From: an uncultured bacterium
Lineage (GTDB): Bacteria; Patescibacteriota; Minisyncoccia; Phycocordibacterales; UBA918
Length of the DNA: 39,622 bases
Assembly: GCA_937867625.1 (NCBI GenBank)
Contig: CALMKR010000218.1
Span: forward strand, 1 to 39,622
Direction: 5' to 3'
A program made the position numbers and the translations under genes. Positions 8,358-25,512 of the stretch are shown piece after piece (position 1 is the stretch's first letter; each line of letters begins with the position of its first letter). The notes below the pieces were generated by a model that searched no databases, had not been told where the DNA came from, and worked only from the letters and a program-made list of their open reading frames with translations.

Positions 8358-9019
8358 TTAAACTCAACATACTAGCTATCGCAGCAGTTGAAGATAGAAC
8401 AAATTTAGATATTCAAATTGCCAAACAAACACTACAGCCTAATAACGTATTCGTACATGTAGACAAGAATCCAGCACAGGGTATAAACGATCGTAGAAAA
8501 CGCATAGCCGAGAATCATAAGATACTTGTTCAAGCAGTAGAAGATTTGAAGCCTGATCTTGTATGGCAATTAGAAGGGGATTCAGTTCTAAACCATAATA
8601 CCTTACAAAAGCTGTATGATGACTTTCAAATACTTAAAGGTAATGGGTTTGGGTATGTATCAGGAATACAGGTCGGTAGACATGGGCTATACGCACTTGG
8701 AGCATGGACAAACTTCACCGAAGATAGTTTTGAGAGTATTAACTACACATTAGACGGATTACAACGTGTAGAAGCTACTGGATTTTATTGCTTACTAGCA
8801 CAGCCGAAAGTATGGCTGAGTGGTCAGTGTTCTTGGGATGGAGAGCCATATGGACCAGATGTAGTTTGGGGACGCAGTATACAGAAACAAAAGTATGTAG
8901 ATATGGATATTCCGATCGGACACCTTGTAAAGAACGGAATAATTAGACCAGAACATATGAGTACCTGTAATGTAAAATTTAGTAAGATAAATGGTAAATG
9001 GGAGTATAAACAACTATGA
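8354..9019 (+). CDS. possible GT-A-like transferase, otherwise hypothetical
   Basis: LNILAIAAVEDRTN... and QLEGDSVL (an EGD motif, as in 6601..7359). Weak. Confidence 0.3.
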   Translation: MIKLNILAIAAVEDRTNLDIQIAKQTLQPNNVFVHVDKNPAQGINDRRKRIAENHKILVQAVEDLKPDLVWQLEGDSVLNHNTLQKLYDDFQILKGNGFGYVSGIQVGRHGLYALGAWTNFTEDSFESINYTLDGLQRVEATGFYCLLAQPKVWLSGQCSWDGEPYGPDVVWGRSIQKQKYVDMDIPIGHLVKNGIIRPEHMSTCNVKFSKINGKWEYKQL

Positions 9020-10212
9020 ATATAAATGACATCATACCAAACAAAGATAATCCGAGAGTTATTCGAGATGATAACTTCAAAAAGCTCGTGCAATCTATAA
9101 AAGACTTTCCTGAAATGCTTGAGATTAGACCGATCGTATTGAACAAAGAACACGTTATTCTTGGTGGAAATATGCGGTATCGAGCTTGTAAAGAAGCAGG
9201 GTTAAAAGACATACCTGTTCAGATTGTAGACTTATCAGAAGAAAAACAACGTGAGTTTATTATAAAAGATAATGTTAGTGGTGGTGATTGGGATTGGGAT
9301 GTATTAGCTAATGAATGGGATACTGATTTATTGAATGATTGGGGACTTGAATTACCTGGTGGGTTTGGTGATGAGGAAGTAGAAGAAGATGAAGCACCAG
9401 AGGTAAGTAGTGAGCCACCTGTGAGTCAACTTGGAGTGGTTTATCAGTTAGGCAGACATAGGGTTATGTGTGGGGATAGTACAAATGATTTACCTATATT
9501 GATGGATGGAACAAAAGCAAACCTATTAGTAACCGATCCACCATATGGCGTTAGTTACGCTGATAAAAACGCCTTTCTTAATTCTATTTCCCGGGGAAAT
9601 AGAAACCAAACAAAGATAGAAAACGACCATATGAAGCCTGAAGAAATGAAAGAGTTTTGGACAGAATCATTCGGGGCAATATTTGCTTATCTTGAAAGTG
9701 ATGCTAGTTTCTACATAACCTCCCCACAAGGAGGGGAACTACTACTACTACTACAGTCATTATACGATATTGGTTATCCCTCAAGACACATGATTATCTG
9801 GGCAAAGAACAACCATGTTTTAGGTAGATGTGACTATAATTACAAACATGAGCCAATTCTGTATGGGTGGTTAGAAAAGCACAAGTTCTACGGTAATGGC
9901 ACACAGAAAACGAGTGTTTGGAACATAGATAAACCACACCAGAGCAAAGAACATCCAACAATGAAACCAGTAGAGTTATTTGCAGAGTGTGTTTTGAACG
10001 GTACTGAAAAAGGACAGGTGGTACTAGACGCTTATCTAGGTAGCGGAACTACTCTAATAGCTTGTGAACAAACAGACCGCACTTGTTACGGCATGGAGCT
10101 TGACCCTAAATATGTAGATGTTATACGCAAAAGGTATGCTAAGTTTATAGGTGAAGAAGATTGGGAAGCAGTAACACTAGAAATCAGCGGAGGAACAGCG
10201 GATGGCTCTTAA
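9016..10212 (+). CDS. ParB-like nuclease domain fused to an N6-adenine/N4-cytosine DNA methyltransferase
   Basis: N-terminus IRPIVLNKEHVILGGNMRYRACKEAGLKDIPV (ParB/Srx fold). Methyltransferase motif IV LLVTDPPYG, then HPTMKPVEL and motif I VLDAYLGSGTT (beta-class order). Confidence 0.85.
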   Translation: MNINDIIPNKDNPRVIRDDNFKKLVQSIKDFPEMLEIRPIVLNKEHVILGGNMRYRACKEAGLKDIPVQIVDLSEEKQREFIIKDNVSGGDWDWDVLANEWDTDLLNDWGLELPGGFGDEEVEEDEAPEVSSEPPVSQLGVVYQLGRHRVMCGDSTNDLPILMDGTKANLLVTDPPYGVSYADKNAFLNSISRGNRNQTKIENDHMKPEEMKEFWTESFGAIFAYLESDASFYITSPQGGELLLLLQSLYDIGYPSRHMIIWAKNNHVLGRCDYNYKHEPILYGWLEKHKFYGNGTQKTSVWNIDKPHQSKEHPTMKPVELFAECVLNGTEKGQVVLDAYLGSGTTLIACEQTDRTCYGMELDPKYVDVIRKRYAKFIGEEDWEAVTLEISGGTADGS

Positions 10213-10612
10213 CCCACAAAACATAGAACAACACAAGTTCAAACCGGGACAATCGGGCAACCCTGCCGGAAGACCACCGGGTATACCTAATGCAAAAACA
10301 AGGTATAAAAGATTACTAGAACTTGTTACTAAGAAAGCTAACCCTGTAACTGGTGAGATAGAAGAATTTACTCAACTAGAATTGATGGACATGGCTATTT
10401 TTAATAAAGCACTAAAGGGTGATTTAAGAGCCTATAAAGAAGTGATGGATAGACTAGAGGGAACATCTGCACAAAGCGTAGACTTAACAAGCGGTGGTGA
10501 AAAGCTACCAACAGTTATAATAGAAAATGTATATGGAACAAAACCAAACTTCCGAGTCAATAATGAGGTTGCCGAGGCTGATAACGTGGCAACAGACAGT
10601 AACCCAGAATAA
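10202..10612 (+). CDS. terminase small subunit (putative)
   Basis: Position immediately upstream of TerL. N-terminal KPGQSGNPAGRPPG motif is common in small terminases. Confidence 0.55.
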   Translation: MALNPQNIEQHKFKPGQSGNPAGRPPGIPNAKTRYKRLLELVTKKANPVTGEIEEFTQLELMDMAIFNKALKGDLRAYKEVMDRLEGTSAQSVDLTSGGEKLPTVIIENVYGTKPNFRVNNEVAEADNVATDSNPE

Positions 10613-11768
10613 CGCTAGATTTAAAATACTTAGATGTGGACGTAGAACTGGTAAGACTTTTTATTTTATTATAGATAGTTTATCGCTTGGGTTACTCTAT
10701 CCTAATTTATCTATGGCGTATGTTGGCTTAACGTATGGTCATGCAAAAGATGTGGTATGGGAAGATTATATAAAGCTTGCCGGTGGATTGATTGAATATA
10801 AGAACAGCCAAGAGTTAATAATACGACTACATAATGGCTCACGCATAAAATTGTACTCATGGGATTCAGTCGATAATATGCTTGGTAAGAAGTATCACAA
10901 GGTCTATTTAGATGAGTGTGCTGTAGCTAAGAACTTAAAAAAAGCTTGGGAAGATGTAATCGAGCCTACACTATTGGATTATCATGGTGAAGCGTTATTT
11001 GCTTCTATGCCTCGTGGTAAAGGTCAATTTAAAGCTATGATTGACGAGAGTAAAAAGAAAGATGATTGGCAAGACTTTCACTTTACATCTTATGATAATG
11101 ACACTATCCCAAATGTAAGAGAGGATTTGGATCGCAAGCGTAGAGATATAGCACCTAGTGTATTTGCTCAACAATACCTTGCAGAGTTTACTGATTTAGA
11201 GGGCCGTATATATACTGAATTTAAGCGTGATGATGCATTACAAGAATGTCCATTTACGCCTATACGATATGGGTTTAGTGTAGACTTTGGCTACAATCAC
11301 CCACTTGCGGCTTATGTATACGCTATAGGAAGTGACGATCAGATTCATGTTATTAAAGAACTGTATGCTCGCAAGTTAGATGATTTACAACGTGTACAAG
11401 CTATTAAAGATTTAACCGATGAGTATAGAATAGATGTTGCAGTAGCAGATAGTGAAGACCCGATTGCGATACAACAGCTATCTAGAGAATTAAACTTTAG
11501 GGTAGACCCTGCTGTTAAAGGTAAAGACTCAGTGTTTCAAGGTATTAACGAAATGAAATCAGCCTTTCATTCAGGGCAACTTACGGTCAGTGATACATGT
11601 ACAAACTTAATAGACGAATTAGAAATATACAGTTGGAAGCTAGATGCAGAGGGCAAGGAAACCGATCAACCAATAAAAGAGAATGATGACGCTTGCGACT
11701 CAGTAAGGTACTTTGTTACTAAGATACGAAACACAAGTTTAATAACAATGCAAGATATTGCAATGTGA
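10527..11768 (+). CDS. terminase large subunit
   Basis: Walker A LRCGRRTGKTF, Walker B-like VYLDEC, and a C-terminal nuclease region with acidic residues. Start uncertain (10527 or 10563). Confidence 0.85.
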   Translation: MYMEQNQTSESIMRLPRLITWQQTVTQNNARFKILRCGRRTGKTFYFIIDSLSLGLLYPNLSMAYVGLTYGHAKDVVWEDYIKLAGGLIEYKNSQELIIRLHNGSRIKLYSWDSVDNMLGKKYHKVYLDECAVAKNLKKAWEDVIEPTLLDYHGEALFASMPRGKGQFKAMIDESKKKDDWQDFHFTSYDNDTIPNVREDLDRKRRDIAPSVFAQQYLAEFTDLEGRIYTEFKRDDALQECPFTPIRYGFSVDFGYNHPLAAYVYAIGSDDQIHVIKELYARKLDDLQRVQAIKDLTDEYRIDVAVADSEDPIAIQQLSRELNFRVDPAVKGKDSVFQGINEMKSAFHSGQLTVSDTCTNLIDELEIYSWKLDAEGKETDQPIKENDDACDSVRYFVTKIRNTSLITMQDIAM

Positions 11769-11821
11769 TTGTGCTATAATCACATTAGAGCGCCATTGAG
11801 TGCCATAACAGGGTAACATTT

Positions 11822-13789
11822 ATGAAATTAGGTCAGCGATTACAGACCGCATACAAGGTTCTAACTTCTCAGAATCTTGGCAATTCAATTAGTGGACAAG
11901 TTCTACGCAATTATCAACAAGGGTCAGCCTTTAACCCAACACGACAACTCTACGGTATAACGTATAAAGCAATAGATAAAATAGGTATGGCAGTAGCCGA
12001 CTACGAGCCACTGGTAGAAAAGTCTAATGGTGACACACTAGAAAACCATCCTATTTATAACCTTGCTAAAATGCCAAACCCTAGACAGAATGGGCATTAC
12101 TTCTTTCATCTTGAAGCGATGCTGTATGAGATATATGGAGAAACTTTCTGGTACAAGGTACGAGGTGAACGTACAAACAAAGTAAAAGAACTGTACCTAC
12201 TTAATCCGGCTTCTATGGAGTTAGTATTTGGTGAGGGCGAGTTGCAAGGCTATGTACTACATAAACCAAACGGACAACAGATACCGTTTACCTTAGAGGA
12301 AATACACCACGATAAACGACCTAACCCATTTAACGAATGGCGTGGTATGTCAGTAATGGAAAAAGCATCACAGTATGTAGACATTGAACTCACTACTACT
12401 TCGTTTACGTTGAACTATATGCGGAACAACGCTAGTCCATCAGGGATTGTAAGCCTACCTGATATGGATCGAGATACGTTTAAACAATTCGCTGCTCAAT
12501 GGCGTGAGGGGTATGAGGGACCGGAGAACGCCGGAAAGACTGCCTTTATACGAGGTGGTGAAGCAGACTTTAAAGCAGTTGGTGCTACTCTAAAAGACAT
12601 TGATCAGAAGATAACTCGTGACATGGCAAAAGACGACGTGCTGATGATGTTTGATATGCCGAAAGGACTACTCGGAGCGAGTGGTGAAAAAGGACTGGGG
12701 CGAGCTGAAACAGAAGCATTAGAATACATATTTGCGAAGTATAAGGTCGAGCCTATGATGGAGCGACTTGATGAAATCTTTGAGGGTATATTAGTAGAGA
12801 TGGGTGTGAGTGATTCTACCAGTGAGATTACCCACTTAACCTCTATTCCTGATGACAAGCAATACATACTGAACCAGAATGAAAAAGGGGTCGGACGGTG
12901 GATTACTATAAACGAGGCTCGGCAATCACAGGGACTTCCTCCCATACCTGATGGTGATGAACTCGGTTCACCGCCTGCACCCACAAATGAAACTAAGGCT
13001 AAAAAAGTCACGCTTAAAAAAAAATTAACTAAAGCTGAAATGACTAAGAAAATCAATCAAGACCAAGAGGAGTTTAGACGAAACTTGGTTGAGACTAACG
13101 ACATCTATGCTAAAAAGTACAAAAGCAAATTAGTTACATTTCTTAGTAATCAAGAAGATGAGATTATTGAAAAGATAGGCGCTCGGAAAAAAGCCTTTGA
13201 AGAATGGTTGTTTGATATTAAGAACGCCAGTGAAGATATGAAAGACGCATTACTGCCAGTCATATTAGATTTAATGGAAGCACAAGGCGAAGATGTTACT
13301 AACTTTATATCTGGGGAACTCTTAACGATATCTCCTGAGATACGTCAAAAAGTAGAACACGACATTCTACAAATTAGTGGTGTGTTTAATACTGATACTA
13401 TTAAGGCACTAGAAAAGACACTACAAGAGGGTCAAGCACAGGGTGAAAGTCTTGTCAAACTAAAAAAACGAGTGGAAACAGTGTACTCAGACGCTAAAGG
13501 CTACCGAGCCGAGAGAATTGCTAGAACTGAATCATTACGAGCCAGTAATAACACGGCGGAGATTGTCTACCAGCAATCTGGCTATAACAAAGTCGAATGG
13601 TTTACTAATCCCGGAGCATGTGAGTTTTGTCAGACGTTTAGTGGCAAGACCAAAACTATTGGCTCAAACTTTATGGATAACGGTGATACATTGACTGGTG
13701 CTGATGGTGGTATGATGAAAATAACTTACGATGATGTGGCAACGCCACCGCTCCACCCTTCTTGTACTTGCTCGCTAGTACCAGTTTAG
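11822..13789 (+). CDS. portal protein fused to a Mu F / SPP1 gp7-like head morphogenesis domain
   Basis: 655 aa, positioned after TerL. The C-terminus AERIARTESLRASNNTAEIVYQQSGY...NPGACEFCQ...PPLHPSCTCSLVP is the classic MuF domain ending. Confidence 0.8.
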   Translation: MKLGQRLQTAYKVLTSQNLGNSISGQVLRNYQQGSAFNPTRQLYGITYKAIDKIGMAVADYEPLVEKSNGDTLENHPIYNLAKMPNPRQNGHYFFHLEAMLYEIYGETFWYKVRGERTNKVKELYLLNPASMELVFGEGELQGYVLHKPNGQQIPFTLEEIHHDKRPNPFNEWRGMSVMEKASQYVDIELTTTSFTLNYMRNNASPSGIVSLPDMDRDTFKQFAAQWREGYEGPENAGKTAFIRGGEADFKAVGATLKDIDQKITRDMAKDDVLMMFDMPKGLLGASGEKGLGRAETEALEYIFAKYKVEPMMERLDEIFEGILVEMGVSDSTSEITHLTSIPDDKQYILNQNEKGVGRWITINEARQSQGLPPIPDGDELGSPPAPTNETKAKKVTLKKKLTKAEMTKKINQDQEEFRRNLVETNDIYAKKYKSKLVTFLSNQEDEIIEKIGARKKAFEEWLFDIKNASEDMKDALLPVILDLMEAQGEDVTNFISGELLTISPEIRQKVEHDILQISGVFNTDTIKALEKTLQEGQAQGESLVKLKKRVETVYSDAKGYRAERIARTESLRASNNTAEIVYQQSGYNKVEWFTNPGACEFCQTFSGKTKTIGSNFMDNGDTLTGADGGMMKITYDDVATPPLHPSCTCSLVPV

Positions 13790-13798
13790 GAAAAATGA

Positions 13799-14353
13799 AT
13801 GAATACATGTAAATATTGCAATCAAAAATACGCACCAACAAGAAAAGACCAAAAGTTTTGCAGTATTAGTCATGCTTTAAAACACCGTTATGCTAATGGG
13901 TTTAAACCAAATACAGAAAAAGCACATGAGACACTACGCACCAAAGGTCATTATAAAAGAGATAATACATACTTAAAAACTAATAACCCTGCTAAATCAC
14001 CCGAAGCAAGAATAAAAATATCTGATTCCAAGATGGGTAATAAAAATGCTATGTACGGAATTGTGGGTGATAAACATCATAATTGGTCAGGTGGAAAAAA
14101 CAAGACAATATGGAAATCAGTAGAATATCAACGATGGCGCAAATCAGTAATGCGGAGAGATAATTTTACTTGTGTAGAATGTGGAGATAACAAAGGCGGT
14201 AACTTAGAAGCAGACCATATTAAACCTAAATATTTATTTCCTGAACTAACATTTGTAATAGATAACGGCAGAACGCTTTGTGTAGATTGTCATAAAGCAA
14301 CTAAAACATGGGGACAAAAAGTGAAGTCACTAAGCAGAGCGGACTTCGCATAA
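13799..14353 (+). CDS. HNH endonuclease (NUMOD-like repeats)
   Basis: CKYCN..., KMGNKNAMYG, and LEADHIKPKYLFPE...GRTLCVDCH. Confidence 0.75.
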   Translation: MNTCKYCNQKYAPTRKDQKFCSISHALKHRYANGFKPNTEKAHETLRTKGHYKRDNTYLKTNNPAKSPEARIKISDSKMGNKNAMYGIVGDKHHNWSGGKNKTIWKSVEYQRWRKSVMRRDNFTCVECGDNKGGNLEADHIKPKYLFPELTFVIDNGRTLCVDCHKATKTWGQKVKSLSRADFA

Positions 14354-15180
14354 TGGATAACCTAGAACTCTACCAAGAAGAACAGCGTCAAGCTCTTATA
14401 GATATGAATAAGGGTATTGTTGAATTGTCTAAAAAAGTACAACAACAGATAGATGCGTACGAAGTTGTTAAAAATGTTGAAGTCACCGGTAGAGTAGAAG
14501 TAAATACTGAAAAAGAAATAGCTGTGAGCAACTTAGAGGACTTACAGGGCTCAATAGAAAGCTTAGAGGGTACATTATCTAAAGCTATTAAAGATAACTC
14601 GTACAAGCCCTTAGAAGCGGTCACCGTAAAGAATATTAAGGACGCATTACCTACTGAGTTAAAGATTACTAACTTAGCTGATATTAAACAGTATTTTAAT
14701 GATCTTGAGCAATCTATTAAGAATAATCAGCCAATTGTCAACGTAGCAAAACAAGACATTGTATTCCCTACTGATCCAAAGAAGCCAATACCTGTACGCA
14801 TAACTGATGGTAAGAAGTTTATAGACGCATTGACAGTCGCAGTCGGTGGCGGTATGGATTCTCAAGGAATCATAGACGCTATAAATAATATTACAGTTAG
14901 TGTTGATACAACTGGATTGGCTACAGAAGCAAAACAAGATGACCTTATTACCGCTGTTAATAATATGGGTGGTTCAGTAACATATAAAGTTCTCGTAGAC
15001 AAATCAGTTACCGACATTATCTATATCGGCAAGGCAACTATTGGGACGGCTACGAGTGTAGCAAGTTGGCAAATTAAAAAAATAGACAAGACCGTAACAG
15101 ATAACGTAACAATAACCTACGCAGCTTCGGGAGCATTCACCGCAACGTGGACAAATCGAGGAAGTGAGACCTACTCATGA
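14353..15180 (+). CDS. putative virion-associated protein, N-terminal coiled coil
   Basis: Start at ATG 14353 (TAATG overlap with the HNH stop). Coiled-coil N-terminus and a beta-rich, Thr-rich C-terminus. Function unknown. Confidence 0.4.
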   Translation: MDNLELYQEEQRQALIDMNKGIVELSKKVQQQIDAYEVVKNVEVTGRVEVNTEKEIAVSNLEDLQGSIESLEGTLSKAIKDNSYKPLEAVTVKNIKDALPTELKITNLADIKQYFNDLEQSIKNNQPIVNVAKQDIVFPTDPKKPIPVRITDGKKFIDALTVAVGGGMDSQGIIDAINNITVSVDTTGLATEAKQDDLITAVNNMGGSVTYKVLVDKSVTDIIYIGKATIGTATSVASWQIKKIDKTVTDNVTITYAASGAFTATWTNRGSETYS

Positions 15181-15368
15181 AACCCATAAACCGCAGATAC
15201 CACGACTTAGACGACACCACCAAACAAAGCTGGCTAACTTGGGATTTATCTAATGGTAGTGAGATAGTAGTGGAGAACTTAACTACTTTTGGTGAAGTAA
15301 CAGACAGTAAAGAACAGCTTACAGCCTTAGCTCAAGAGGTCTGTGATAGTTATGAGGAGAATCTATAA
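15177..15368 (+). CDS. hypothetical acidic protein (63 aa)
   Basis: ATGA-coupled ORF. Confidence 0.4.
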   Translation: MKPINRRYHDLDDTTKQSWLTWDLSNGSEIVVENLTTFGEVTDSKEQLTALAQEVCDSYEENL

Positions 15369-17893
15369 TGGCAGTAATTGTATCCAATGGAGCAACTAAC
15401 TTATCCACAGCTGGTGGGTTTTATCGGTCTGAGAGTTACAACCTCTCACCTATGAGTACAACTTATCTGACATTAGCAAGTGCTAGAACAATAAATGTTA
15501 CTTTTGCTAATGCTGGCAACTGTCAAGGGTTAATTATTTACCTAGCTACCGCAACACACTGCAACAAAGACGTAACTGTTAAACTCCAAGAGAATACTGG
15601 CTCATGGGTAGACCGAGCAAGTGTAACCCTGACCGCTAATCAAATTACTAACAGCGTAGCCAGTAATGCTCAGGCTACCTGGGTAAAGGCTTTTACATTT
15701 GCAACTCCTTATGCCGTAGACACCACAGCTAGCAAATGGCGATTCGATATATCACAAGGCTCAGGTACAAATAACTGGTCACTCAGAACTTCAAATGGTA
15801 CAGCTCCGTCATATATTACTTGGTGCGATAACGCCATAAGCTACACTACTAACGATGTAATTATCGCTAAAGAAACTATAACCATTGACCAAAACTGTAC
15901 ATTTAAGGGGCTATTATCTACTGGGGATAGCACCAACTCTATTTGTGCGATTGCTTGTACTAGCACTACTAGAGACCCAACTGCTAACGGTATGATAGTT
16001 TGGGACGACACCCCAGCGTCAAGCTACACAATGAACATAGACGGCTATATGGTGTTATCTGCTTATGCAGGTTTTCACATTGGTAATTCAACTAATCGCA
16101 TACCCTATGCACAAAAAGCAGTCGTGAACATTAAAAACGCTACTTCTGGCACTGCTACTAATACAGGTATAGGACAGGGTGGCAACGCTTCTCACGCAAG
16201 TGTAACTGGCAAGTCTAGTTTTCAGTTATACGGTGAAGTACCTGCCGTGCGAGTTACTGAGCTTGCTTCAGACGCTAACTTTAACCAAAAGAACATAGTT
16301 ACTACTGACACAACTGGTTGGAGTGTGGGCGATAAGGTGGTTGTCTGTAAGGCTCAAACAGCTGGTGGTACTGCCGAAACTGCACCATTTACAATTGATA
16401 CAATATCTGGCACTAATATTACATTTTTAGAAAATATACTCTCAGCTAAAAGGCTAACTGGCGGTAAAGTTTTCAGAGTTAATGGCTATGGAGTAGAAAT
16501 AATAGTAGAGAATAGTACTGCCATTACCAATTATCTGAACGGCTGTAATGGTTACACAGTTGATGGGGCATATATAACAAGAGCTGTTTTTAATTTTACT
16601 AATGGAACAAGTGAGTGGAACGATAGTGCGGCTAACATTACTGACCTGAAAACAGTAGACAGTGCATTTGTAGGTGCTTCTATCTATGCCACAGTAAATT
16701 GGCATAATAGTAGAACAATAACCGCTGAACGCTGTCATAATTTTAAGGGTGGATTCAGTAGCACTTTTTATGGACCACCAACAGCATTAAAAACAATCAA
16801 GGATTGTATATTCTATGGAACAGGTATTGGTGGTTGGTACAGAGTCCAAAATGCCTTAGTTGAGGATAATTATGTGTATAATAATGGGTCACCACTACTA
16901 GGTAATGGTGGTCTTTACAACTCAACTTTTAGAAATAACTATTTTTGGGGTGCTCAATATGTGTTCCGCAACGATGGTCCATTTGCCAATATTCTGTTTG
17001 AAAATAATATCTGGGATTATACCGACCGCTCTTTCTATAATTTTAATGTAGTAACTAATGTTATTTTTAGAAACGACACATTTGGAGTTGAGCTTGCCAC
17101 AAGATATGTTTTTTCTAACTTTCAAAATTATTCACCAATATCGGCAGTTCTATTTGACAACTGTGTAATTAAGCCAGTTCTCAACTCGCCAACCGAAAAC
17201 AATGGAGAGAGTGTGGACGGCTCAAAAATGAGGTTCCAAGACTACAACCAAACCGCTAACTATGATTTTACTGCTATGACTTACGGCACGATTACTAGAA
17301 CAGGCACAGGACTAGCTGACACTACCGTCCGAACGGCTGGGGGCTTTGCGATGAGGTTTGAACCGACTTATTCACCAAACCTAATGCACTGGGAACAGAA
17401 TGTTCCAACAGGCAATATTCAGAACAAGACGATGACTGTTTCACTCTGGGTCAAGCTAAACAATTCAGCTTACTGGGCTGGCACTCACACCAAACCAACC
17501 CTAACGATTGATTACGACAACGGCACAACTATCACCTCAGTAGCTCAAGGTAATACTAACTGGCAACTACTAGCTTGCACCTTTACACCTGCTACTACCT
17601 ATGGACAGATTGAAATGAAAGTCACAGGAGCTACCGACGCTACTGGCACGGATAGATACTTCTACGTTGATGATGTGAATGTAGCCTACCCTGCTGGTGT
17701 GGCTATTGACCTTGGCAACTTGGACTTGTGGGCAGAGGGATTGCCTGTAGCTCCAGCTATTGCAACTATGCCTAGTCTTGGTGGTGTATGGGACGAGCCA
17801 TTATCTGTACACACAATTGCTGGTAGTGCTGGAAAGATATTGAAAGACGGGGCTGATAACGCAGAGGCAGCAGCATATGATATGTATAAATAA
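15368..17893 (+). CDS. large Asn/Thr-rich protein, probable right-handed beta-helix (fibre/depolymerase-like)
   Basis: 841 aa. Recurrent short N/G-rich turns (NNGS, GNGG, FRNN, FENN, FRND) are typical of parallel beta-helix repeats. Fold call is by eye. Confidence 0.45.
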   Translation: MAVIVSNGATNLSTAGGFYRSESYNLSPMSTTYLTLASARTINVTFANAGNCQGLIIYLATATHCNKDVTVKLQENTGSWVDRASVTLTANQITNSVASNAQATWVKAFTFATPYAVDTTASKWRFDISQGSGTNNWSLRTSNGTAPSYITWCDNAISYTTNDVIIAKETITIDQNCTFKGLLSTGDSTNSICAIACTSTTRDPTANGMIVWDDTPASSYTMNIDGYMVLSAYAGFHIGNSTNRIPYAQKAVVNIKNATSGTATNTGIGQGGNASHASVTGKSSFQLYGEVPAVRVTELASDANFNQKNIVTTDTTGWSVGDKVVVCKAQTAGGTAETAPFTIDTISGTNITFLENILSAKRLTGGKVFRVNGYGVEIIVENSTAITNYLNGCNGYTVDGAYITRAVFNFTNGTSEWNDSAANITDLKTVDSAFVGASIYATVNWHNSRTITAERCHNFKGGFSSTFYGPPTALKTIKDCIFYGTGIGGWYRVQNALVEDNYVYNNGSPLLGNGGLYNSTFRNNYFWGAQYVFRNDGPFANILFENNIWDYTDRSFYNFNVVTNVIFRNDTFGVELATRYVFSNFQNYSPISAVLFDNCVIKPVLNSPTENNGESVDGSKMRFQDYNQTANYDFTAMTYGTITRTGTGLADTTVRTAGGFAMRFEPTYSPNLMHWEQNVPTGNIQNKTMTVSLWVKLNNSAYWAGTHTKPTLTIDYDNGTTITSVAQGNTNWQLLACTFTPATTYGQIEMKVTGATDATGTDRYFYVDDVNVAYPAGVAIDLGNLDLWAEGLPVAPAIATMPSLGGVWDEPLSVHTIAGSAGKILKDGADNAEAAAYDMYK

Positions 17894-17904
17894 AAGGAGT
17901 TAAT

Positions 17905-18249
17905 ATGGCAGAAATTGATATAGTCAGAGGTGATACAAGGGTAATAACAGCTACATTTTTAGATAGTGCTGGCGACCCTATAAATTTAAGTGGTGGTGAA
18001 GTATTTTTTACGGTCAATGCAGATTCTGAACCGACAGATGATACAGAAGCAGTAATACAAAAAGATATTTCAAGTTTTAGTACACCAACTACTGGTGTAT
18101 TGTCTTTTACATTATCGGCTAGTGATACGAATATCACACCTGCAACGTACTGGTATGATGTACAATTTGTATCAGGTGCAGGTGTAGTTACATCGCTACC
18201 AAAGGATAAGTTTATAATAAGGTCAGATATAACAAGGAGAACCGCATAA
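17905..18249 (+). CDS. small Ig-like/BppU-N-like structural domain protein
   Basis: IVRGDTRVITATFLDSAGDPINLSGGEVFFTV...TPATYWYDVQF pattern is common in phage fibre and decoration Ig-like domains. Confidence 0.4.
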   Translation: MAEIDIVRGDTRVITATFLDSAGDPINLSGGEVFFTVNADSEPTDDTEAVIQKDISSFSTPTTGVLSFTLSASDTNITPATYWYDVQFVSGAGVVTSLPKDKFIIRSDITRRTA

Positions 18250-18327
18250 TGGAACAGATAGAAGATATAACATTACAAGTAGATGATTTAGACATCATAA
18301 TTAACACTAATATAGGGGAACAATAAC

Positions 18328-18693
18328 ATGGCAAAACTAATACCTGACGGACGACTCGACTCAATGCTCGGAATATTAACTAACTGTACTTCAATAAGCG
18401 TATGCTCCACACAGCCTACTACTCGTACAGAAGCAGTAACAACGTATATGCTTGCTACTAAAACAATTACTAGTGCTAATTTTACATTAGCTGATGACTC
18501 AACTGTAGGACGTAAAGCTACTACTGATGTACATTCTGCTATTAGTATAACTAACTCTGGTACTGCACAACACATAGCTGGTACAGACGGAACAAACCTT
18601 TTATGGGTTACAACTTGTACTTCACAATCACTTACAGCAGGTGGAACCGTAACAATCCCTGCATTTGCACTCAAACTAGCTGACGCTGCTTAA
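18328..18693 (+). CDS. hypothetical Thr-rich protein (121 aa)
   Basis: ORF with GGGGAAC-type RBS. The antisense ORF 18288..18674 was rejected. Confidence 0.4.
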   Translation: MAKLIPDGRLDSMLGILTNCTSISVCSTQPTTRTEAVTTYMLATKTITSANFTLADDSTVGRKATTDVHSAISITNSGTAQHIAGTDGTNLLWVTTCTSQSLTAGGTVTIPAFALKLADAA

Positions 18694-18707
18694 ATAGGAG
18701 AAGTCCT

Positions 18708-19004
18708 ATGCAGTTACATCTATATGGCGGTGAAAAACTTGTTTTAACTGTAGATGACGCTGTGCAATATATTAAGGTAAACGGCACAGATAACATCTTT
18801 GGTATATCTGATGAGAAAGTGGCGTATTTTGCTGGACTTAAAAAGTTAAATAAAGACACTACTAAAGCCGAAGAATTACTGACTAAAGATATTACTTTGT
18901 TTGAATACTACTATGAAAAAGGTGAACTGGAATTAGACAAACTAGACCATGCAACCAGAGACAAACTTAAACAAAAATTACCTGATGTGAAAGTGAAAAT
19001 ATAA
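18708..19004 (+). CDS. hypothetical protein (98 aa)
   Basis: ORF with AGGAGAAG upstream. Confidence 0.45.
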   Translation: MQLHLYGGEKLVLTVDDAVQYIKVNGTDNIFGISDEKVAYFAGLKKLNKDTTKAEELLTKDITLFEYYYEKGELELDKLDHATRDKLKQKLPDVKVKI

Positions 19005-20503
19005 TGGCAGTAACTATTAGAGGCAGTCAAACGTATCAGTCTGGAAGCGGTGGATTTTTATCTTCGCACACTATGGCAGACCTTGATGTTACAGGAACAG
19101 ATACATGTGCTATAGCTGCTGGGTTCAACCGTAACCCTGCTTCTGATGTAGGTTCATGGACGTTTGAGGGTAACACTCCTACTGCAATAGCTGACTCAAT
19201 AAACGCTAATGTGGTAGCTGTTAGTACTCAGCGTTATTTAATAAGTAACGCAGCTACTACAATCGTATCTAATACACCATCATTTAAGCTACAAGCCATG
19301 ATAGGCGTTGCCTTAGAGGGTGTTGACCAGACTACACCTATTGCTGGTTCTACTACTGGTGGTTCTTATGGCACAGCTGCGACTGCAAGCTATACAGGTA
19401 CAAGTGGCAACATGTTGCTTGTATTTGTATCTACTCAAAACGATAGAACATTTACTGCTTCGGGTACAACTGATATAACCTCAGTCACTCATGCAGACGC
19501 TAACCTTGGTTCGGGTTATGCAGGGTATGTATCGGCTACAGGAAGCTCGCAAACTATAGGAGCAACTTTATCGGCTAACGATAACTGGCGCTTAGTAATA
19601 ATGGAAGTTACGGCTGCTGCTTCGGGTACTACGCTTGTAGTACAAGATATATCTACAACGCCAACTTTCGAAGTACCTGCATTAACTCAAGCTAACACCC
19701 TTGTAGTACAAGACGCTTCTATTACGCCTACACTGGAAAACGTAGCACTCACTCAAGCTAATACTCTAGTCGTACAGGATATATCTACTACACCAACATT
19801 AGAAAGTCCTGTTTTAAGTTTATCGTTGATAGTAGCGGACATTAGCAGTACACCTACACTAGAAAGCCCTACATTAACGCAAGCCAACACATTGGCAGTA
19901 AATAATGTTAGTACTACTCCTACTATAGAAAGTCCTGCACTTACTCAGGCAAATACCCTTGTAGTAACTGATATAAGTACAACACCAACTTTTGAAAGTC
20001 CTGCACTTACGCAAGCTAATAATCTAACTGTAGCTAATGTATCTACAGCCCCTACATTTGAAAGCCCTGTTTTAACTCAAGCCAATACTTTAGCTGTAGC
20101 CGACATATCTACTACACCTACTTTAGAAGCTACTGATGTATCTGGTGCAAATGTTCTATCTGTAAATGATATATCGACAACTCCTAGCTTCGAAATACCG
20201 AGTCTTATGCAAGCTAATAATCTTGCAGTACAAGATGTGAGTATAGTAACAGGATTAGATTCAACAACTCTTGATACAGGGATTACTACATTAACGGTAC
20301 AAGATTTAAGTCTTACACCTACACTAGAAACAATAGATTTTAGCACCGCAGTAGATATAGAACTTACTATTAGACAAATACAAACGGATATTGAAGTATC
20401 TCAAGAACTAACTGATTTAATTATAAGACAACAAATAACCGATATAATCGTAGAACAAGTAACTGATTCTATAATTGTTCGTCAGGAAATATCAGAAGTA
20501 TGA
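19004..20503 (+). CDS. tandem-repeat Ser/Thr/Pro-rich protein (putative virion fibre or decoration protein)
   Basis: 499 aa. Residues 206-445 form eleven units of consensus TQANTLVVQDISTTPTLESPAL. The C-terminus has three IRQ..TDIIV-like mini-repeats. Confidence 0.6.
   Translation: MAVTIRGSQTYQSGSGGFLSSHTMADLDVTGTDTCAIAAGFNRNPASDVGSWTFEGNTPTAIADSINANVVAVSTQRYLISNAATTIVSNTPSFKLQAMIGVALEGVDQTTPIAGSTTGGSYGTAATASYTGTSGNMLLVFVSTQNDRTFTASGTTDITSVTHADANLGSGYAGYVSATGSSQTIGATLSANDNWRLVIMEVTAAASGTTLVVQDISTTPTFEVPALTQANTLVVQDASITPTLENVALTQANTLVVQDISTTPTLESPVLSLSLIVADISSTPTLESPTLTQANTLAVNNVSTTPTIESPALTQANTLVVTDISTTPTFESPALTQANNLTVANVSTAPTFESPVLTQANTLAVADISTTPTLEATDVSGANVLSVNDISTTPSFEIPSLMQANNLAVQDVSIVTGLDSTTLDTGITTLTVQDLSLTPTLETIDFSTAVDIELTIRQIQTDIEVSQELTDLIIRQQITDIIVEQVTDSIIVRQEISEV
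19619..20338 (+). repeat. in-frame tandem repeat: 11 units, period 66 nt (one 60-nt unit)
   Basis: Unit boundaries at aa 206, 228, 250, 272, 292, 314, 336, 358, 380, 402 and 424. DNA copies differ at many synonymous positions. Confidence 0.85.
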
Positions 20504-20694
20504 TTGATGTAAAATGCAAAGGCTGTAATAAGTTACTTGCCAAAGTTGATAACTTACAAGGCGCTATTAAATGTCCACGGTGCTATATGATATTTGAATA
20601 CAATGTTAAGAGTAATGAGATATTTGTCACAAATGAATTTGACATGACTAGCATTACTGTTATAATGCCACCAGAGTCCTCAAAGAGACCATAA
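20500..20694 (+). CDS. Com-like zinc-ribbon protein
   Basis: IDVKCKGCNKLLAKVDNLQGAIKCPRCYMIFEY resembles the Mu Com family (CxxC...CPRC). Confidence 0.5.
   Translation: MIDVKCKGCNKLLAKVDNLQGAIKCPRCYMIFEYNVKSNEIFVTNEFDMTSITVIMPPESSKRP
20639..20666 (+). promoter_or_regulatory. near-consensus sigma-A promoter with extended -10, inside the 3' end of the Com-like gene
   Basis: TTGACA (20639-20644), 16-nt spacer ending TGt, TATAAT (20661-20666). Confidence 0.6.
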
Positions 20695-20738
20695 ATCCAC
20701 CTCAGTTACGAGCTGGTCGGTTGTCAGAGGACTTTTTT
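20675..20738 (+). promoter_or_regulatory. structured leader with T-tract upstream of the protease gene
   Basis: agtcctc (20675-20681) pairs with gaggact (20727-20733), followed by T-run 20733-20738. Confidence 0.35.
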
Positions 20739-20754
20739 AATTATAAGGAAATAC

Positions 20755-21453
20755 ATGCACATAAAAGCAGATGGGTTAATAGAAAAAGCTAGTCGATTAA
20801 AAGAGGGCGAAGTAGAATTTGTGGTATCAACGAACGCATGGGACGCTCACGGTGAACGTATCAATGTAGACGGCATAGACATAAAAGACTTTAAGAAAAA
20901 CCCTGTTGTATTATGGGGTCATGATGGATTTAACCTACCTATAGCCAAAGCCACTAAGGTTTGGAAAGAGGGTGGCAAGTTAATGGCTAAAGCTCAGTTC
21001 TATATGAAAGATGAGTTTGCAGCCAAAGTATATAACTACATTCTTGACGGATACTTGAACGCTGTATCGATCGGTGGAATGGTGCAAGAGTGGGGATCAG
21101 ATGGACTTACTATTACGAAGATGATGATGAAAGAGTTTAGTGTTGTATCAATCCCTGCTAACCAAGAAGCACTAGTCGCTAGTAAGTCATTTGATGGTAA
21201 TCAGAAAGCGGAACTCCGGGCATTGGCTAACGCTTACGCTCGTAAGATGCTGACTGATGGTAATGAAATTAAAAACGATATACAAGTATTGAAAACACTC
21301 GTAGCCACTTTAGAGGAATTAAGCTTTGCTGAACCCGAAGAAGCGTTGGCAGACGAAACAACTAATAGACGGGTTATTTTGCGCCAAGCGCAAGCGGTCG
21401 ATAACCAAGTTGAAACTGTCATAAGACAAATTAAATTGAAAGGAAACTCATAA
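20755..21453 (+). CDS. HK97-family prohead protease (S78-like) with C-terminal coiled region
   Basis: VEFVVSTNAWDAHGERI...VVLWGHD...FSVVSIPANQEA. Positioned directly upstream of the capsid gene. Confidence 0.8.
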   Translation: MHIKADGLIEKASRLKEGEVEFVVSTNAWDAHGERINVDGIDIKDFKKNPVVLWGHDGFNLPIAKATKVWKEGGKLMAKAQFYMKDEFAAKVYNYILDGYLNAVSIGGMVQEWGSDGLTITKMMMKEFSVVSIPANQEALVASKSFDGNQKAELRALANAYARKMLTDGNEIKNDIQVLKTLVATLEELSFAEPEEALADETTNRRVILRQAQAVDNQVETVIRQIKLKGNS

Positions 21454-22682
21454 TGAGTACAGAAAAAATCGAAATTGACTCAGACGTTATTGACGCTGTT
21501 TCAAAATCAGTTCAGGAAGCTCTAAAAGCTGACATGCCTAAAGCTGCAAGTGCAGACGAAATCGCTGACGCAATTATTGCTAAGACTGAAAAAGTAGAAA
21601 AGAAAGCTATTCACAGTGACGAAAAACCAGTTGTTAAAACTTCTGCTATGGAATCACTTAGTAAAGAACAACGCTTTGCAAAAGGTCTTGTTGCTTTTAA
21701 GAATAACGACTCAGTAGGAATTGCTGAATATAACTCTTATGTCGATAAGGCATGGAGCGAAGTAAACAAAGCTAACTACCAAAACGTTACAACTGCTGCT
21801 GACGGTGCTGCTCTAGTACCAGACCCAGAATTTGTTGCAGAGGTAGAACGACTTACGCAGGATTACGGTGTTGCTGCTCGTTTAGCTGATGTTCGTGTTA
21901 CTGATCGTGACTCTGTAACATTGCTTGCTGGTACAAACGAAATCTCGTTTACTCGTACAGGTGAAGCTACAGCGCAGAACGCTCAGAAACTTACTTACTC
22001 AGCTACAACTGTTGCACTTGATAAGTACATTGCTACACTAGTATTTACTAGCGAAGTTATTGAAGATGCTGCTATCAATCTTTGGAATGATGCTGCAACT
22101 GAAATCGCTCGTGCAAGAGCTAAATTGTTTGACCAATTAGTATTCACTGACGCTACATATGGCTTGCTATATGCACCTGATGCTGGTGAAGCTTTCAAAA
22201 CTCTATCAGTTGGTTCAGCCATCACAGATTTCTCTGCTGATGATGCTATGGATTCACGTTACCTCGTAGTCGGTTCAGTCCGTCGTGCAGGTCGTTACTT
22301 CATGCACCCTACTGTTTGGAACATGCTACGACAAACTAAAGAAGCTACTACTGGCGGTTACTTATTCGGTGGCGTTGGTGGTTCAGTAACTCCTATGATT
22401 GACGGTGTTGCTGTAGAACTAGTTGATATTCTTCCTGAAAAGGGTGAAATCACAGCTAACGAGCCTTTTGCAGTATTCGGTGATTTAAGCCGAGTTAAAC
22501 TACACGTTAAAAGACTATTGGAAACAAAAATCTTTGATAGCGGTGTTGTAAAAGACGCTGGCGGTTCTGACATTAACCTGATCACTCAGGACGCATGGGC
22601 AATGCGAGCTACACTTCGATGTGTACCGCAAACACGCTTCCCCGGAGCTTTCGTAATCATTGGAACTGGTGTTGTTTCTTAA
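21453..22682 (+). CDS. major capsid protein, HK97 fold, with N-terminal delta-like domain
   Basis: 409 aa, ATGA-coupled to the protease. Ala/Lys/Glu-rich N-terminal region of about 100 aa, then a typical HK97-type body. Confidence 0.85.
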   Translation: MSTEKIEIDSDVIDAVSKSVQEALKADMPKAASADEIADAIIAKTEKVEKKAIHSDEKPVVKTSAMESLSKEQRFAKGLVAFKNNDSVGIAEYNSYVDKAWSEVNKANYQNVTTAADGAALVPDPEFVAEVERLTQDYGVAARLADVRVTDRDSVTLLAGTNEISFTRTGEATAQNAQKLTYSATTVALDKYIATLVFTSEVIEDAAINLWNDAATEIARARAKLFDQLVFTDATYGLLYAPDAGEAFKTLSVGSAITDFSADDAMDSRYLVVGSVRRAGRYFMHPTVWNMLRQTKEATTGGYLFGGVGGSVTPMIDGVAVELVDILPEKGEITANEPFAVFGDLSRVKLHVKRLLETKIFDSGVVKDAGGSDINLITQDAWAMRATLRCVPQTRFPGAFVIIGTGVVS

Positions 22683-22718: not shown

Positions 22719-23246
22719 ATGGCACAAATTTCAAAGCTAAAAGTAGCAGCCGGATCTCTCATCACCTTTGGTGGTGTTGATTTAGGACATACTGTTGATG
22801 GTGCTGAAATTGAAATCGAGCGAGAGTTTACCGAAGTAAAGACTGACTTATACGGAAATACACCTGTAGATTACGTTTTGTCTGGTCAAAAAGCTACAGT
22901 CAAACTCAAGCTTGCTGAAATTCACCCGTTTACTCTTAACTATGTCATGCCTGAGAATGATTATGACGTTGGTACTGCTGACGATCATACTCACTTTGGT
23001 ACAAAGGCTGGTTACAGTTTGCGAAATGACGCTCTTGAATTAGTTATCACCCCACAAGGTGGTAATGCTGATGGCAACCTAACCTTTACTTTCTTCAAAG
23101 CGGTATCTACTGAAAACGCTACGCTTGCTTACAAAATAGATGAGCAATCAGTGTTTGAAGTAACGTTTACTGCTCTCGTTGATGAGAGTCGAGCTGCAAC
23201 CGATGGACGATTCCTCGGACGCATGGGACCAGTCAATATTTCATAG
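22719..23246 (+). CDS. putative major tail (tube) protein
   Basis: 175 aa. KLKVAAGSLITFGGVDLGHTVDGAEIEIEREFTEVKTDLYGNTPVDYVLSGQKATVKLKLAE resembles siphovirus tube proteins. No other tube candidate lies between the tail terminator and the chaperones. Confidence 0.5.
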   Translation: MAQISKLKVAAGSLITFGGVDLGHTVDGAEIEIEREFTEVKTDLYGNTPVDYVLSGQKATVKLKLAEIHPFTLNYVMPENDYDVGTADDHTHFGTKAGYSLRNDALELVITPQGGNADGNLTFTFFKAVSTENATLAYKIDEQSVFEVTFTALVDESRAATDGRFLGRMGPVNIS

Positions 23247-24024: not shown

Positions 24025-24456
24025 ATGAAGCCTAAAGACTTAGTAAGATTTTGGAACAAAGTTACCAAAACTGAAATGTGTTGGGAATGGAGTGCTGGTA
24101 CTCAAAAAGGGTATGGAGCTTTTCATTTAAATGGAAAAATGCGACCTGCTCACCGTGTATTATACGAGCATTTGTATGGTGAAATAGAAAAAGGTTTAGA
24201 GATTGACCATACTTGCTTTAATAAAAAATGTGTAAACCCTATGCACTTAGACAAGGTTACTCCATCTGTAAACACTCGTAGAGGTAAATTAAATGCCGGA
24301 CAAGTTAAACTTACATATAAGTCTGATGTTAAAGAGTATTGTAAAAATGGACATCTAAGAAATATAGGGAATACTTATGAAAATGGCAAAAATAAAACCT
24401 GTAGAGTTTGCCAATTAGCTAGTGTAAACAGGTACAATGCGAGGGTGACATCATAA
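24025..24456 (+). CDS. HNH_3-type homing endonuclease
   Basis: CWEWSAGTQKGYGAF...PAHRVLYEHLYG...IDHTCFNKKCVNPMHLDKVT. Confidence 0.8.
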   Translation: MKPKDLVRFWNKVTKTEMCWEWSAGTQKGYGAFHLNGKMRPAHRVLYEHLYGEIEKGLEIDHTCFNKKCVNPMHLDKVTPSVNTRRGKLNAGQVKLTYKSDVKEYCKNGHLRNIGNTYENGKNKTCRVCQLASVNRYNARVTS

Positions 24457-24773: not shown

Positions 24774-25126
24774 ATATTGTGAACGACAAAATGCCTCAAT
24801 TTAAACGAAGTCTTTATAATGTATTAGATGACGCATTTCGAGAGGGAGCAAGAGATACACTTATAAATGCTAAACAAAACGCACCATTCGATAAGGGTGG
24901 ATTGCGTAGTGAAACAGAAGTAAGCAAACCGGGTATATTGCACTACCGAGTATCATTTTGGAAAGAGTACGCTCGTTATCAAGAATTTGGTGGAGATGAT
25001 AATCGTACTGTTAGAAACTACTCAACTGCCGGTACTGGCAAAGCATATTTAAAAACAGCCGGGGATAAAGAAGCTACTAAGTTAGTAATGACAATTAAAA
25101 AACATATACCGAGGGTTCGAGTATGA
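24770..25126 (+). CDS. HK97 gp10-like tail-completion/neck protein
   Basis: ...NAKQNAPFDKGGLRSE... motif, plus position. Confidence 0.5.
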   Translation: MNIVNDKMPQFKRSLYNVLDDAFREGARDTLINAKQNAPFDKGGLRSETEVSKPGILHYRVSFWKEYARYQEFGGDDNRTVRNYSTAGTGKAYLKTAGDKEATKLVMTIKKHIPRVRV

Positions 25127-25512
25127 TAGACGTTGCATTAACAGTCGGAACATATCTAGACAATGCCGGGTTTGGTACGGTTGGAACTGATATATTTATT
25201 GGTCAAATACCTGCTACACAAGATGGTATATATGTACTTCGTGCCGGTGGACAAATGAATAACTATGTACCTATTGAAGAATCTGTAGTAGACATATATG
25301 TAAAGAATACTACCTCACAGCAAGCTATACAGACCTTAGAACAGATTAAACGCTACATTCACCGTATGCACTCTACAACTATTGGTAATGATTACATCTA
25401 TACCTTTTTAGTTTTAGGTGATATAGAAGATGTACAGCGTGATTTAGAGTTAGCAAAGATTTATAAAATAACCCTGCAAGTAGTTCATAGGGACGAAGCA
25501 GTAATAAGTTAG
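25123..25512 (+). CDS. tail terminator-like protein
   Basis: Position and size (129 aa). Confidence 0.4.
   Translation: MIDVALTVGTYLDNAGFGTVGTDIFIGQIPATQDGIYVLRAGGQMNNYVPIEESVVDIYVKNTTSQQAIQTLEQIKRYIHRMHSTTIGNDYIYTFLVLGDIEDVQRDLELAKIYKITLQVVHRDEAVIS

Follow-up and report, generated by a model that had tools for sequence, protein, structure and literature searches.

A conserved, high-turnover gene slot between the portal and prohead protease genes of uncultured freshwater phages

What do the genes that separate the portal gene from the prohead protease gene in a group of uncultured phages encode, and how did they come to occupy this position? The question is raised by contig CALMKR010000218.1 (39,622 nucleotides; this whole stretch of DNA is hereafter called the window), which represents approximately one complete phage genome of ~39.4 kb, with all genes on the + strand, the strand of all features described below. 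In the window, a block of nine tightly packed, co-oriented open reading frames (ORFs; 13799-20694) is bordered upstream by the portal gene (11822..13789) and downstream by the genes for the S78 prohead protease (20755-21453) and the HK97-fold major capsid protein (21453-22682). In order, these ORFs encode an HNH endonuclease, the proteins denoted g275, g63, g841, g114, g121, g98 and g499, and a Com-like zinc ribbon protein. An earlier note on this DNA, made from the sequence alone, placed all nine ORFs correctly and regarded the block as an insertion acquired as a cassette. Gene order in related phages indicates instead that the block is the local version of a permanent cargo slot maintained throughout the lineage, rather than a recent insertion. 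We think it probable that the products of this slot form a virion appendage, low in copy number and exchangeable, that binds or cuts glycans on the host surface.

Gene order between portal and protease

Using portal and g841 queries, 55 related loci were retrieved from IMG/VR, and all window proteins were mapped onto them (loci and contigs other than the window are designated by L numbers). Ten contigs of lineage 1, with portals 56-72% identical to that of the window, cover the region from portal to protease (L013/L040, L024, L026, L027, L030, L031, L049, L050, L052 and L055), and in all ten, the two genes are separated by 2.8-5.2 kb of genes, compared to 7.0 kb in the window. The same arrangement is found in lineage 2 (L004, L006, L009 and L012), where the portal is likewise fused to a Mu F-like domain and is only 26-29% identical to the window portal; here, ~4 kb lie between portal and protease (L006, L009). 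Streptomyces phage mu1/6, a cultured outgroup with a fused portal, contains a single 116-aa gene at the slot position. Thus, every relative that spans the region from portal to protease, including those of the second lineage, carries a block at this site. The earlier note had itself allowed that a gene order universal in the group would speak against an insertion; this is the order found, and the insertion reading is therefore refuted on its own terms. A literature search for a described portal-proximal fibre slot returned nothing relevant.

The contents of the slot show a high turnover within a stable frame. In lineage 1, a fibrous protein opens each block and the Com-like gene closes it; the first slot protein is homologous to the N-terminal domain of g275 in 9 of 11 contigs, and there are ~7 architectures in total. 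The slot of L024 and L055, for example, contains an 807-809-aa protein distantly homologous to g841 over its full length (hhalign probability 99.3%). The possibility that the block is a moron, that is, an autonomous promoter-gene-terminator insert, was also considered and rejected, because the block has no flanking promoter or terminator of its own: no promoter site matching at least 10 of 12 consensus positions and no convincing + strand terminator were detected within 13799-20630.

The flanking gene that the earlier note took as a sign of acquisition does encode a free-standing HNH homing endonuclease (13799..14353; PF01844, 34.8 bits, above the Pfam cut-off), but it is present only in L022 and in the contigs identical to the window (L056-L058), and is missing in L010 and the other relatives. 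In L010, the portal of which is 95% identical to that of the window, g275 starts 3 nt past the portal stop codon, with no HNH gene in between. The gene thus combines the HNH motif, sporadic presence among close relatives and precise intergenic placement that characterize homing HNH genes, and appears to be an independent, recent selfish insertion into the short portal/g275 spacer. HNH-mediated acquisition of the cassette was rejected, given that the HNH gene is sporadic and the slot is present without it. The window contains two further free-standing HNH genes (154-606 and 24025-24456) with a similarly sporadic distribution; the latter, like the gene at 13799-14353, occupies a short intergenic spacer of the structural operon and is found only in some close relatives.

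All three protein families of an HK97-type head module were identified, namely, the portal (PF04860, 142 bits; phrog_2662, E 6e-79 over the full length), the protease (PF04586) and the capsid protein (PF05065, with the match beginning at aa 121, so that an N-terminal extension of ~120 aa precedes it). The genes for the small and large terminase subunits (10202-11768) lie upstream of the portal gene. The portal, protease and capsid genes are not contiguous, the gap measuring 6.97 kb in the window. Apart from the block, the earlier note considered this head module canonical, which it is not: the portal protein carries a Mu F-like minor-head domain fused to its C-terminus (aa 530-652; PF04233, 28.7 bits, slightly under the cut-off of 29.6), and a tail-tube-like gene follows the capsid gene. 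The product of this gene (22719-23246) matches PF25681 at 26.6 bits, slightly under the cut-off, as well as phrog_885 and phrog_117 (major tail protein) and phrog_2175 (Ig-domain), and with 77-99% identity, is among the most conserved proteins of the family. The canonical site between the tail terminator gene (25123-25512) and the chaperone genes lacks a tail tube gene. The 22719-23246 protein is either a displaced major tail protein or a decoration protein.

The source group consists of widespread, uncultured freshwater phages. Contigs identical to the window are known (39,394 and 39,426 bases). A megablast search with 11.5 kb matched no cultured phage, tblastn searches with g841, g275, the g499 N-terminal domain and the capsid protein against cultured relatives yielded nothing useful, and the closest portal among cultured phages is 24% identical. 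A genome-collection scan for hosts recovered only three metagenome-assembled contigs, themselves phage-like. Against NCBIfam, none of the block proteins had a match.

The g275, g63 and g841 genes

The nature of the slot cargo is best illustrated by g841 (15368..17893), for which an AlphaFold2 model of high quality was obtained (pLDDT 89.5, pTM 0.83). The model consists of an N-terminal beta-sandwich (aa 1-160), a right-handed beta-helix (~170-620) and a jelly roll resembling carbohydrate-binding modules (CBMs) of families 4 and 16 (~640-780), beyond which a flexible tail closes with a helix; the beta-helix that the earlier note had suspected, and for which it had proposed structure prediction, is clearly visible. 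A Foldseek search of the PDB retrieved tailspikes and depolymerases, namely, Pseudomonas phage phi297 gp61 (4ru5, E 9e-10), Klebsiella K64-1 S2-4 (9k4a), LKA1 gp49 (4ru4) and CBA120 TSP4 (5w6h), with a probability of 1.0 and E 1e-9 to 1e-6 at sequence identities of only 8-12%; K1 lyase was also among the matches. The jelly roll matched CBM16 and CBM4 structures, likewise with a probability of 1.0 (2zez, 1gui and 4d0q; target TM-score 0.5-0.6, E 5e-4 to 1e-3), and the matches in BFVD, a database of predicted viral structures, were of the same kinds as those in the PDB. At the sequence level, g841 has no Pfam match, and its family is purely environmental (169 matches, all unnamed, some with Beta_helix, PF13229). 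The N-terminal domain is widespread, forming 272 clusters when sequences are grouped at 50% identity; with few exceptions, it lies at the N-terminus, in proteins 845-1300 aa long. Judging by the model, g841 is a tailspike/depolymerase-like beta-helix protein with a predicted carbohydrate-binding module. The C-terminal tail (aa 797-841; 17760-17893), where a family-conserved GVWDEPL..HT..GS.G motif is followed by a helix, is modelled with low confidence and may be an interaction or assembly element.

Comparison of near-identical relatives reveals exchange of a cassette (15199..17300) that comprises the C-terminal part of g63 together with the N-terminal domain and beta-helix core of g841. L022 is 96% identical to the window at the nucleotide level over 10506-15199, from the large terminase gene into g63, and is divergent beyond this point, where a 36-aa version of g63 is followed by a different, 822-aa protein. 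From ~17300, nucleotide identity returns to 79-93% in L015 and L014, and in L015, the C-terminus of the alternative protein is ~80-86% identical to that of g841. The divergence at 15199 and the resumption of identity at ~17300 mark recombination breakpoints and therefore delimit the N-terminal domain and beta-helix core of g841 as the recently exchanged unit, which is the behaviour expected of a host-specificity determinant.

The two genes upstream of g841 appear to be its partners. The g275 protein (14353..15180), a putative stalk or adaptor, consists of a helical, lineage-specific N-terminal domain (aa 1-165), a GLATEAKQDD motif and a C-terminal beta domain of ~65 aa (aa ~211-275); the ATG at 14353 is supported by homologues that begin with MD..LELYQEEQR. 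The C-terminal domain occurs on unrelated N-termini in L004, L006, L008, L015, L064 and others. In other lineage-1 contigs, the position of g275 is taken by a collagen-repeat protein with a weak, sub-threshold CBM5/12-like match (L026) or by a protein of 434 aa that includes a long coiled coil (L031). The AlphaFold2 model of g275 is poor (pLDDT 60), so that the coiled coil assigned to it in the earlier note finds an echo in a helical model, but only one of low confidence; no Foldseek match below E 0.07 was found, and the g275 profile matched none of the PDB sequences. Small and acidic, as already recorded in the earlier note, g63 (15177..15368; pI 4.2) has homologues directly 5' of g841 homologues in L001, L002, L004, L008, L009, L013, L061 and L064, and is shortened to 36 aa in L015 and L022, where the N-terminal domain and beta-helix of g841 are replaced. 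From this association, g63 would be a connector or an assembly partner.

Because g275 is always the first gene after the portal and its helical, low-confidence model is typical of scaffolds, one could argue that it is a scaffolding or head-assembly protein and that the rest of the block is cargo. We consider this highly improbable. The HK97 strategy, in which an N-terminal capsid extension is combined with a protease, needs no separate scaffold, and the phage in the window has both the ~120-aa extension of the capsid protein and the S78 protease. Furthermore, in L008 and L064, the C-terminal domain of g275 accompanies g63 and g841 at sites distant from the capsid genes, and g275 itself is replaced by the collagen-repeat protein in L026.

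The mobility of the unit formed by a protein with the g275 C-terminal domain, g63 and g841 (hereafter, the triad) extends to other phage backbones. The triad was identified in L004, L008, L061 and L064; in L006, of lineage 2, the stalk protein is followed directly by the g841 homologue, without a separate g63 ORF. In L008, which has a different capsid family (phrog_422), the triad is located 3' of the capsid gene (the genomic contexts of L008 and L002 were annotated in part). In L061, it follows sugar-nucleotide genes and precedes a gene for a tail protein (phrog_10775), and in L064, an SU10-like podovirus with a P22-type portal, an SU10 capsid and an adaptor, it lies between a glycosyltransferase cluster and the portal gene.

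Taken together, these data are compatible with the following arrangement. The g275 protein would be a fibrous stalk or adaptor that is anchored to the particle by its lineage-specific N-terminal domain, and its C-terminal beta domain of ~65 aa would form, with the acidic g63, a docking unit onto which g841 would dock via the conserved N-terminal beta-sandwich. The repeat fibre g499 and the small proteins g114, g121 and g98 would constitute an optional second set, whereas the Com-like protein, as a regulator at an operon boundary, and the HNH endonuclease, as an unrelated selfish insertion, would not belong to the cargo.

The predicted fibre of the second set, g499 (19004..20503), consists of a globular N-terminal domain (aa 1-208), the tandem repeats correctly recognized in the earlier note, and a short C-terminal tail of IRQ-type repeats. 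The tandem repeats number 11, each 22 aa long, and span aa 210-450 (nt 19631-20353, with a DNA period of 66 nt). The repeat copy number differs in L015, where the protein is 398 aa long. We found no Pfam match for g499 and no match among PDB sequences. Environmental proteins with an N-terminal Laminin_G_3 domain share the repeat region; assignment of the g499 N-terminal domain as a LamG lectin (PF13385, a tag carried by many of the homologues) was rejected, the homology running via the repeats only, and the LamG domain of these homologues occupies the equivalent N-terminal position. For g114 (17905..18249), the Ig-like fold suggested earlier is reflected only in a sub-threshold match to Invasin_D3 (19.4 bits versus a cut-off of 33), and the clear match is to phrog_1084 (E 3e-14), a family annotated as function unknown; homologues are present in L014, L015, L018, L029 and L002. 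The Ser/Thr-rich g121 (18328..18693) belongs to a family seen near tailspike genes, with homologues in L015, L030/L052 and Microcystis phage Mae-JY22 (E 1e-14), and a weak match (E 4e-3) adjoining an annotated tailspike in Octadecabacter virus DB2. The small charged protein g98 (18708..19004), without family matches and with homologues only in L018 and the identical contigs, is, by its spacing, translationally coupled to g499.

A probable operon boundary upstream of the protease gene

The downstream end of the slot coincides with a regulatory region. The Com-like zinc ribbon (20500..20694; PF10122, 27.1 bits against a cut-off of 22.9; phrog_6417, 'translational regulator'), which the earlier note had rightly identified, has its gene directly 5' of the protease leader in every lineage-1 locus with coverage of this part, but is absent in lineage 2. 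It is probably a conserved regulator at an operon boundary rather than cargo. The variable 3' tail of the Com-like ORF contains a consensus sigma-70-type promoter (20639..20666; TTGACA, a 16-nt spacer, TG and TATAAT); noted earlier as a consensus promoter, it agrees with the consensus at 12 of 12 positions and has the extended -10 TG. Only one other 12/12 site exists in the 39.6 kb, at 1615-1643. The expected transcription start is the first base of a 63-nt long-stem structure ending in U6. This terminator- or attenuator-like leader RNA (20673..20741), composed of a closing long stem, inner hairpins and the U6 run, is followed by a ribosome-binding site (RBS) and the protease ATG (20755).

Leaders were folded one by one and compared with shuffled sequences. 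The window leader has a folding energy of -21.3 kcal/mol (z -2.85), and all eight other distinct lineage-1 relatives (L013, L014, L024, L026, L030, L031, L050 and L055) share the layout, in which the -35 element and the -10 element with its TG extension are followed by a closing stem, different in sequence, around one or two inner hairpins, and then by a U-run (z -2.3 to -6.5). Rfam contains no family that matches the leader RNA or any other part of the window. In lineage 2, promoter-like sites precede the protease gene, but both the hairpin and the Com-like gene are missing, so that these two elements co-occur in lineage 1 and are jointly absent in lineage 2. The second perfect promoter (1615-1643) is also followed by structures with a long stem and U-run (1673-1751 and 1808-1841), ahead of a glycosyltransferase cluster. 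Thus, the arrangement of lambda-type late control, in which a promoter and then a terminator-like leader precede the late genes, is found at 20639-20741 and again at 1615-1841, and the promoter-leader unit may be an antitermination or mRNA-stabilizing switch.

The zinc ribbon invites comparison with the Com/mom system of phage Mu. Like Com, the protein is a small CxxC...CxxC zinc ribbon that scores above the Pfam cut-off, with a structured RNA immediately 3' of its gene, ahead of the next one. Unlike in Mu, there is no mom gene, and the RBS and ATG lie outside the hairpin, which abuts the U-run and is terminator-like; a hairpin masking the start codon, as required for mom-type activation of translation, was not found in the window.

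These signals suggest a division of the genome into two operons, both apparently late: operon A would include the glycosyltransferase cluster, terminase, portal, slot and Com-like genes, and operon B, the protease, capsid, tail and lysis genes. Start and stop codons overlap by 1-4 nt within the runs HNH/g275/g63/g841 and g98/g499/Com, a spacing that suggests translational coupling within the slot. At the 3' end of operon A, gains and losses of genes would be without polar effects on essential genes downstream, a possible reason for the turnover. Expression of the slot proteins is probably low, like that of the portal, and such levels, with co-transcription with the portal rather than the capsid gene, speak against a capsid decoration in high copy. 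Insertions are also accepted downstream of the promoter: in the very close relatives L014 (2665-3189) and L018 (~3297-3814), an extra gene for a 174-aa protein is located between the leader hairpin and the protease gene.

Mounting and function of the slot products

If the slot products are adhesins or enzymes, they do not replace those of the tail tip. The downstream tail module encodes a tape measure protein, Dit, a 568-aa Tal-like protein and three tandem paralogous fibres of 175-192 aa (30061-31708), which share an N-terminal KISALPLDS-type motif and the last of which has a C1q/TNF-like head, in agreement with the Dit, Tal and three fibre genes of the earlier note. In the close relative L067 (Dit 97% and endolysin 93% identical; fibres at 5933-7541), the N-terminal 20-37 residues of the fibres are retained, and the heads are down to 35-54% identity. 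Because the tail-tip fibre heads diverge separately in this way, independently of the slot, the phage possesses two independently diversifying gene sets of an adhesin-like character, one in the slot and one at the tail tip. The proposal of the earlier note that the block is a second set of fibre-like or enzyme-like candidates apart from the tail tip is borne out by the tailspike/depolymerase-like g841 with its CBM, by the collagen and coiled-coil proteins at the same position in relatives, and by composition: g841, g114, g121 and g499 contain 20-30% Ser+Thr and less than 7% Lys+Arg, like Dit, Tal and the tail fibres and unlike the head proteins. Downstream of the tail genes, a holin-like gene (82 aa) precedes that for a CHAP-domain endolysin (32434-33108) with a poly-proline linker and a C-terminal domain, a layout that may point to a Gram-positive host, freshwater Actinobacteria for instance.

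The position of the block could nevertheless be uninformative with respect to mounting, if these are displaced tail genes for ordinary baseplate or side-tail spikes and fibres, with the same function of binding or cutting glycans. We take this possibility seriously, while considering it unlikely. All the tailspike structures matched by g841 point in this direction, as do the weak g121 homologue next to an annotated tailspike, the tail protein gene that follows the triad in L061, and the location of g841 homologues in three further contigs: two of them, L062 and L065, have the homologue at the classical tailspike position, in L062 closing the tail module ahead of the lysis genes and in L065 as the last structural gene before the holin, and in L066 it lies among large fibre genes. 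However, three independent backbones (lineage 1, lineage 2 and L064) have the slot beside the portal; it shares its transcription with the terminase and portal genes rather than the tail genes; the KISALPLDS-type N-terminal motif of the three tail-tip fibres is missing from g275, g841 and g499; and the baseplate already looks complete.

For a virion appendage, mounting at the neck, or the portal-proximal region, is only slightly more likely than at the tail or baseplate. It is favoured by the adjacency of slot and portal in the three backbones, by their co-transcription, and by the presence of the triad in podoviruses, too. The fibres of podoviruses are attached to the adaptor, immediately under the portal, and neck docking would explain both why the triad is shared by SU10-like podoviruses and siphoviruses and why it lies next to the portal gene. 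A more elaborate and rather doubtful version of this scheme has the triad as a plug-in spike at the neck or adaptor, which would give the siphovirus depolymerase fibres at the neck besides those of the tail tip, possibly with phage-glycosylated fibres, and a Com-like switch acting on the leader to delay protease and capsid synthesis until the portal operon is expressed.

The glycosylation part of this scheme derives from a ~7-kb cluster (2078-9019) of genes for glycosyltransferases (GT1-like, RXYLT1-like and Glyco_trans_1_2) and methyltransferases (FkbM and others) that L004 and almost every lineage-1 relative retain; in L064 and L061, comparable clusters adjoin g63-g841. It is located just 5' of a gene for a ParB-N domain fused to an N6/N4 DNA methyltransferase (9016-10212), which is conserved in relatives and directly precedes the small terminase gene. 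By analogy to mycobacteriophage capsid glycosylation (PMC11256854), the cluster may glycosylate the virion, candidate substrates being the block proteins rich in Ser/Thr and, in g499, the 11 'STTPT' repeats, which resemble O-glycosylation sites.

The same cluster bears on a different explanation, under which the slot products act outside the virion, either as soluble enzymes or lectins freed at lysis or in cell-surface remodelling jointly with the glycosyltransferases and methyltransferases. Conservation of the cluster in the same operon, its recurrence beside g63-g841 in L064, along with sugar-nucleotide genes in L061, and the lack of a match to a known virion-anchoring domain in any block protein would all fit. 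We nonetheless find this improbable, since the combination of a portable C-terminal domain, a small partner, a conserved g841 N-terminal domain and a swapped core is an adaptor-like modularity typical of particle-mounted receptor-binding proteins; the triad lies within structural gene clusters in every backbone; and no signal peptides or secretion features were noticed when the block sequences were inspected by eye.

Several observations weigh against an exchangeable virion appendage as the product of the slot, or against parts of it. Virion membership of the block proteins is a prediction, and no cultured relative was found. The N-terminal domain of g275 is not universal, being replaced by an unrelated collagen-bearing protein in L026 and L049, which have the same portal type, and given the poor model and the lack of a structural match, an anchoring role of g275 follows from modularity only. 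In L062, L065 and L066, the g841 family occurs in tail-gene positions without a recognizable g275 C-terminal domain, so that the g841 N-terminal domain may dock elsewhere. Finally, g841 could bind glycans without cutting them.

With these reservations, the appendage that we favour would be built from proteins of already known kinds: tailspike depolymerases, adaptor-mounted receptor-binding proteins, neck appendages and misplaced tail genes. As in the depolymerases phi297 gp61, LKA1 gp49, K64-1 S2-4 and CBA120 TSP4, the beta-helix core of g841 follows a separate N-terminal domain, and as in depolymerase receptor-binding proteins generally, the core is exchanged between near-identical phages; g841, known here from a predicted monomer, differs in its additional C-terminal CBM4/16-like module and in the position of its gene between portal and protease. 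Adaptor-mounted or branched receptor-binding systems are represented by G7C gp63.1/gp66, CBA120 TSP1-4 and the K1-5 adaptor. The slot would resemble these in that a conserved anchor carries an exchangeable enzymatic spike via an N-terminal docking domain, but there is no relation in sequence or fold, and the slot usually adds the small acidic g63.

Accessory structures that bind or cut glycans near the portal, in addition to the tail-tip device, include the pre-neck appendage gp12 of phi29 and the neck passage structure, or collar and whiskers, of lactococcal phages; in phi29, the genes for the portal, lower collar and beta-helix appendage are adjacent. No homology of the block proteins to gp12 or to the lactococcal structures was detected, and a neck location is, for the phages analysed here, a hypothesis. 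The lactococcal genes for the neck passage structure are found at the end of the tail module, whereas the block genes are beside the portal. The term neck appendage can be traced in PMC10714293. In mycobacteriophage Marvin, minor tail genes are reported to lie outside their canonical place (Mageeney et al. 2012, as cited in PMC3706429). Marvin is likewise a siphovirus in which genes of the fibre or minor-tail type break the head-then-tail order, but it belongs to another lineage and is a single phage, in contrast to the conserved, high-turnover slot present across many relatives here.

The block proteins being of known functional kinds, current models are not overturned. What is new is the conserved, high-turnover slot between portal and protease in a broad uncultured lineage, the three-part unit that crosses morphotypes, and the regulated operon boundary. 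The promoter, terminator-like leader and Com-like gene together provide a testable case of the timing of portal versus capsid expression. The portable triad would be a plug-in common to siphoviruses and podoviruses, useful for understanding and engineering the movement of receptor-binding proteins between unrelated virions. If the slot does encode particle-mounted spikes, this group of phages has two independently diversifying host-contact modules, one of which sits in the head-gene region, where annotation pipelines and host-range predictors never look.

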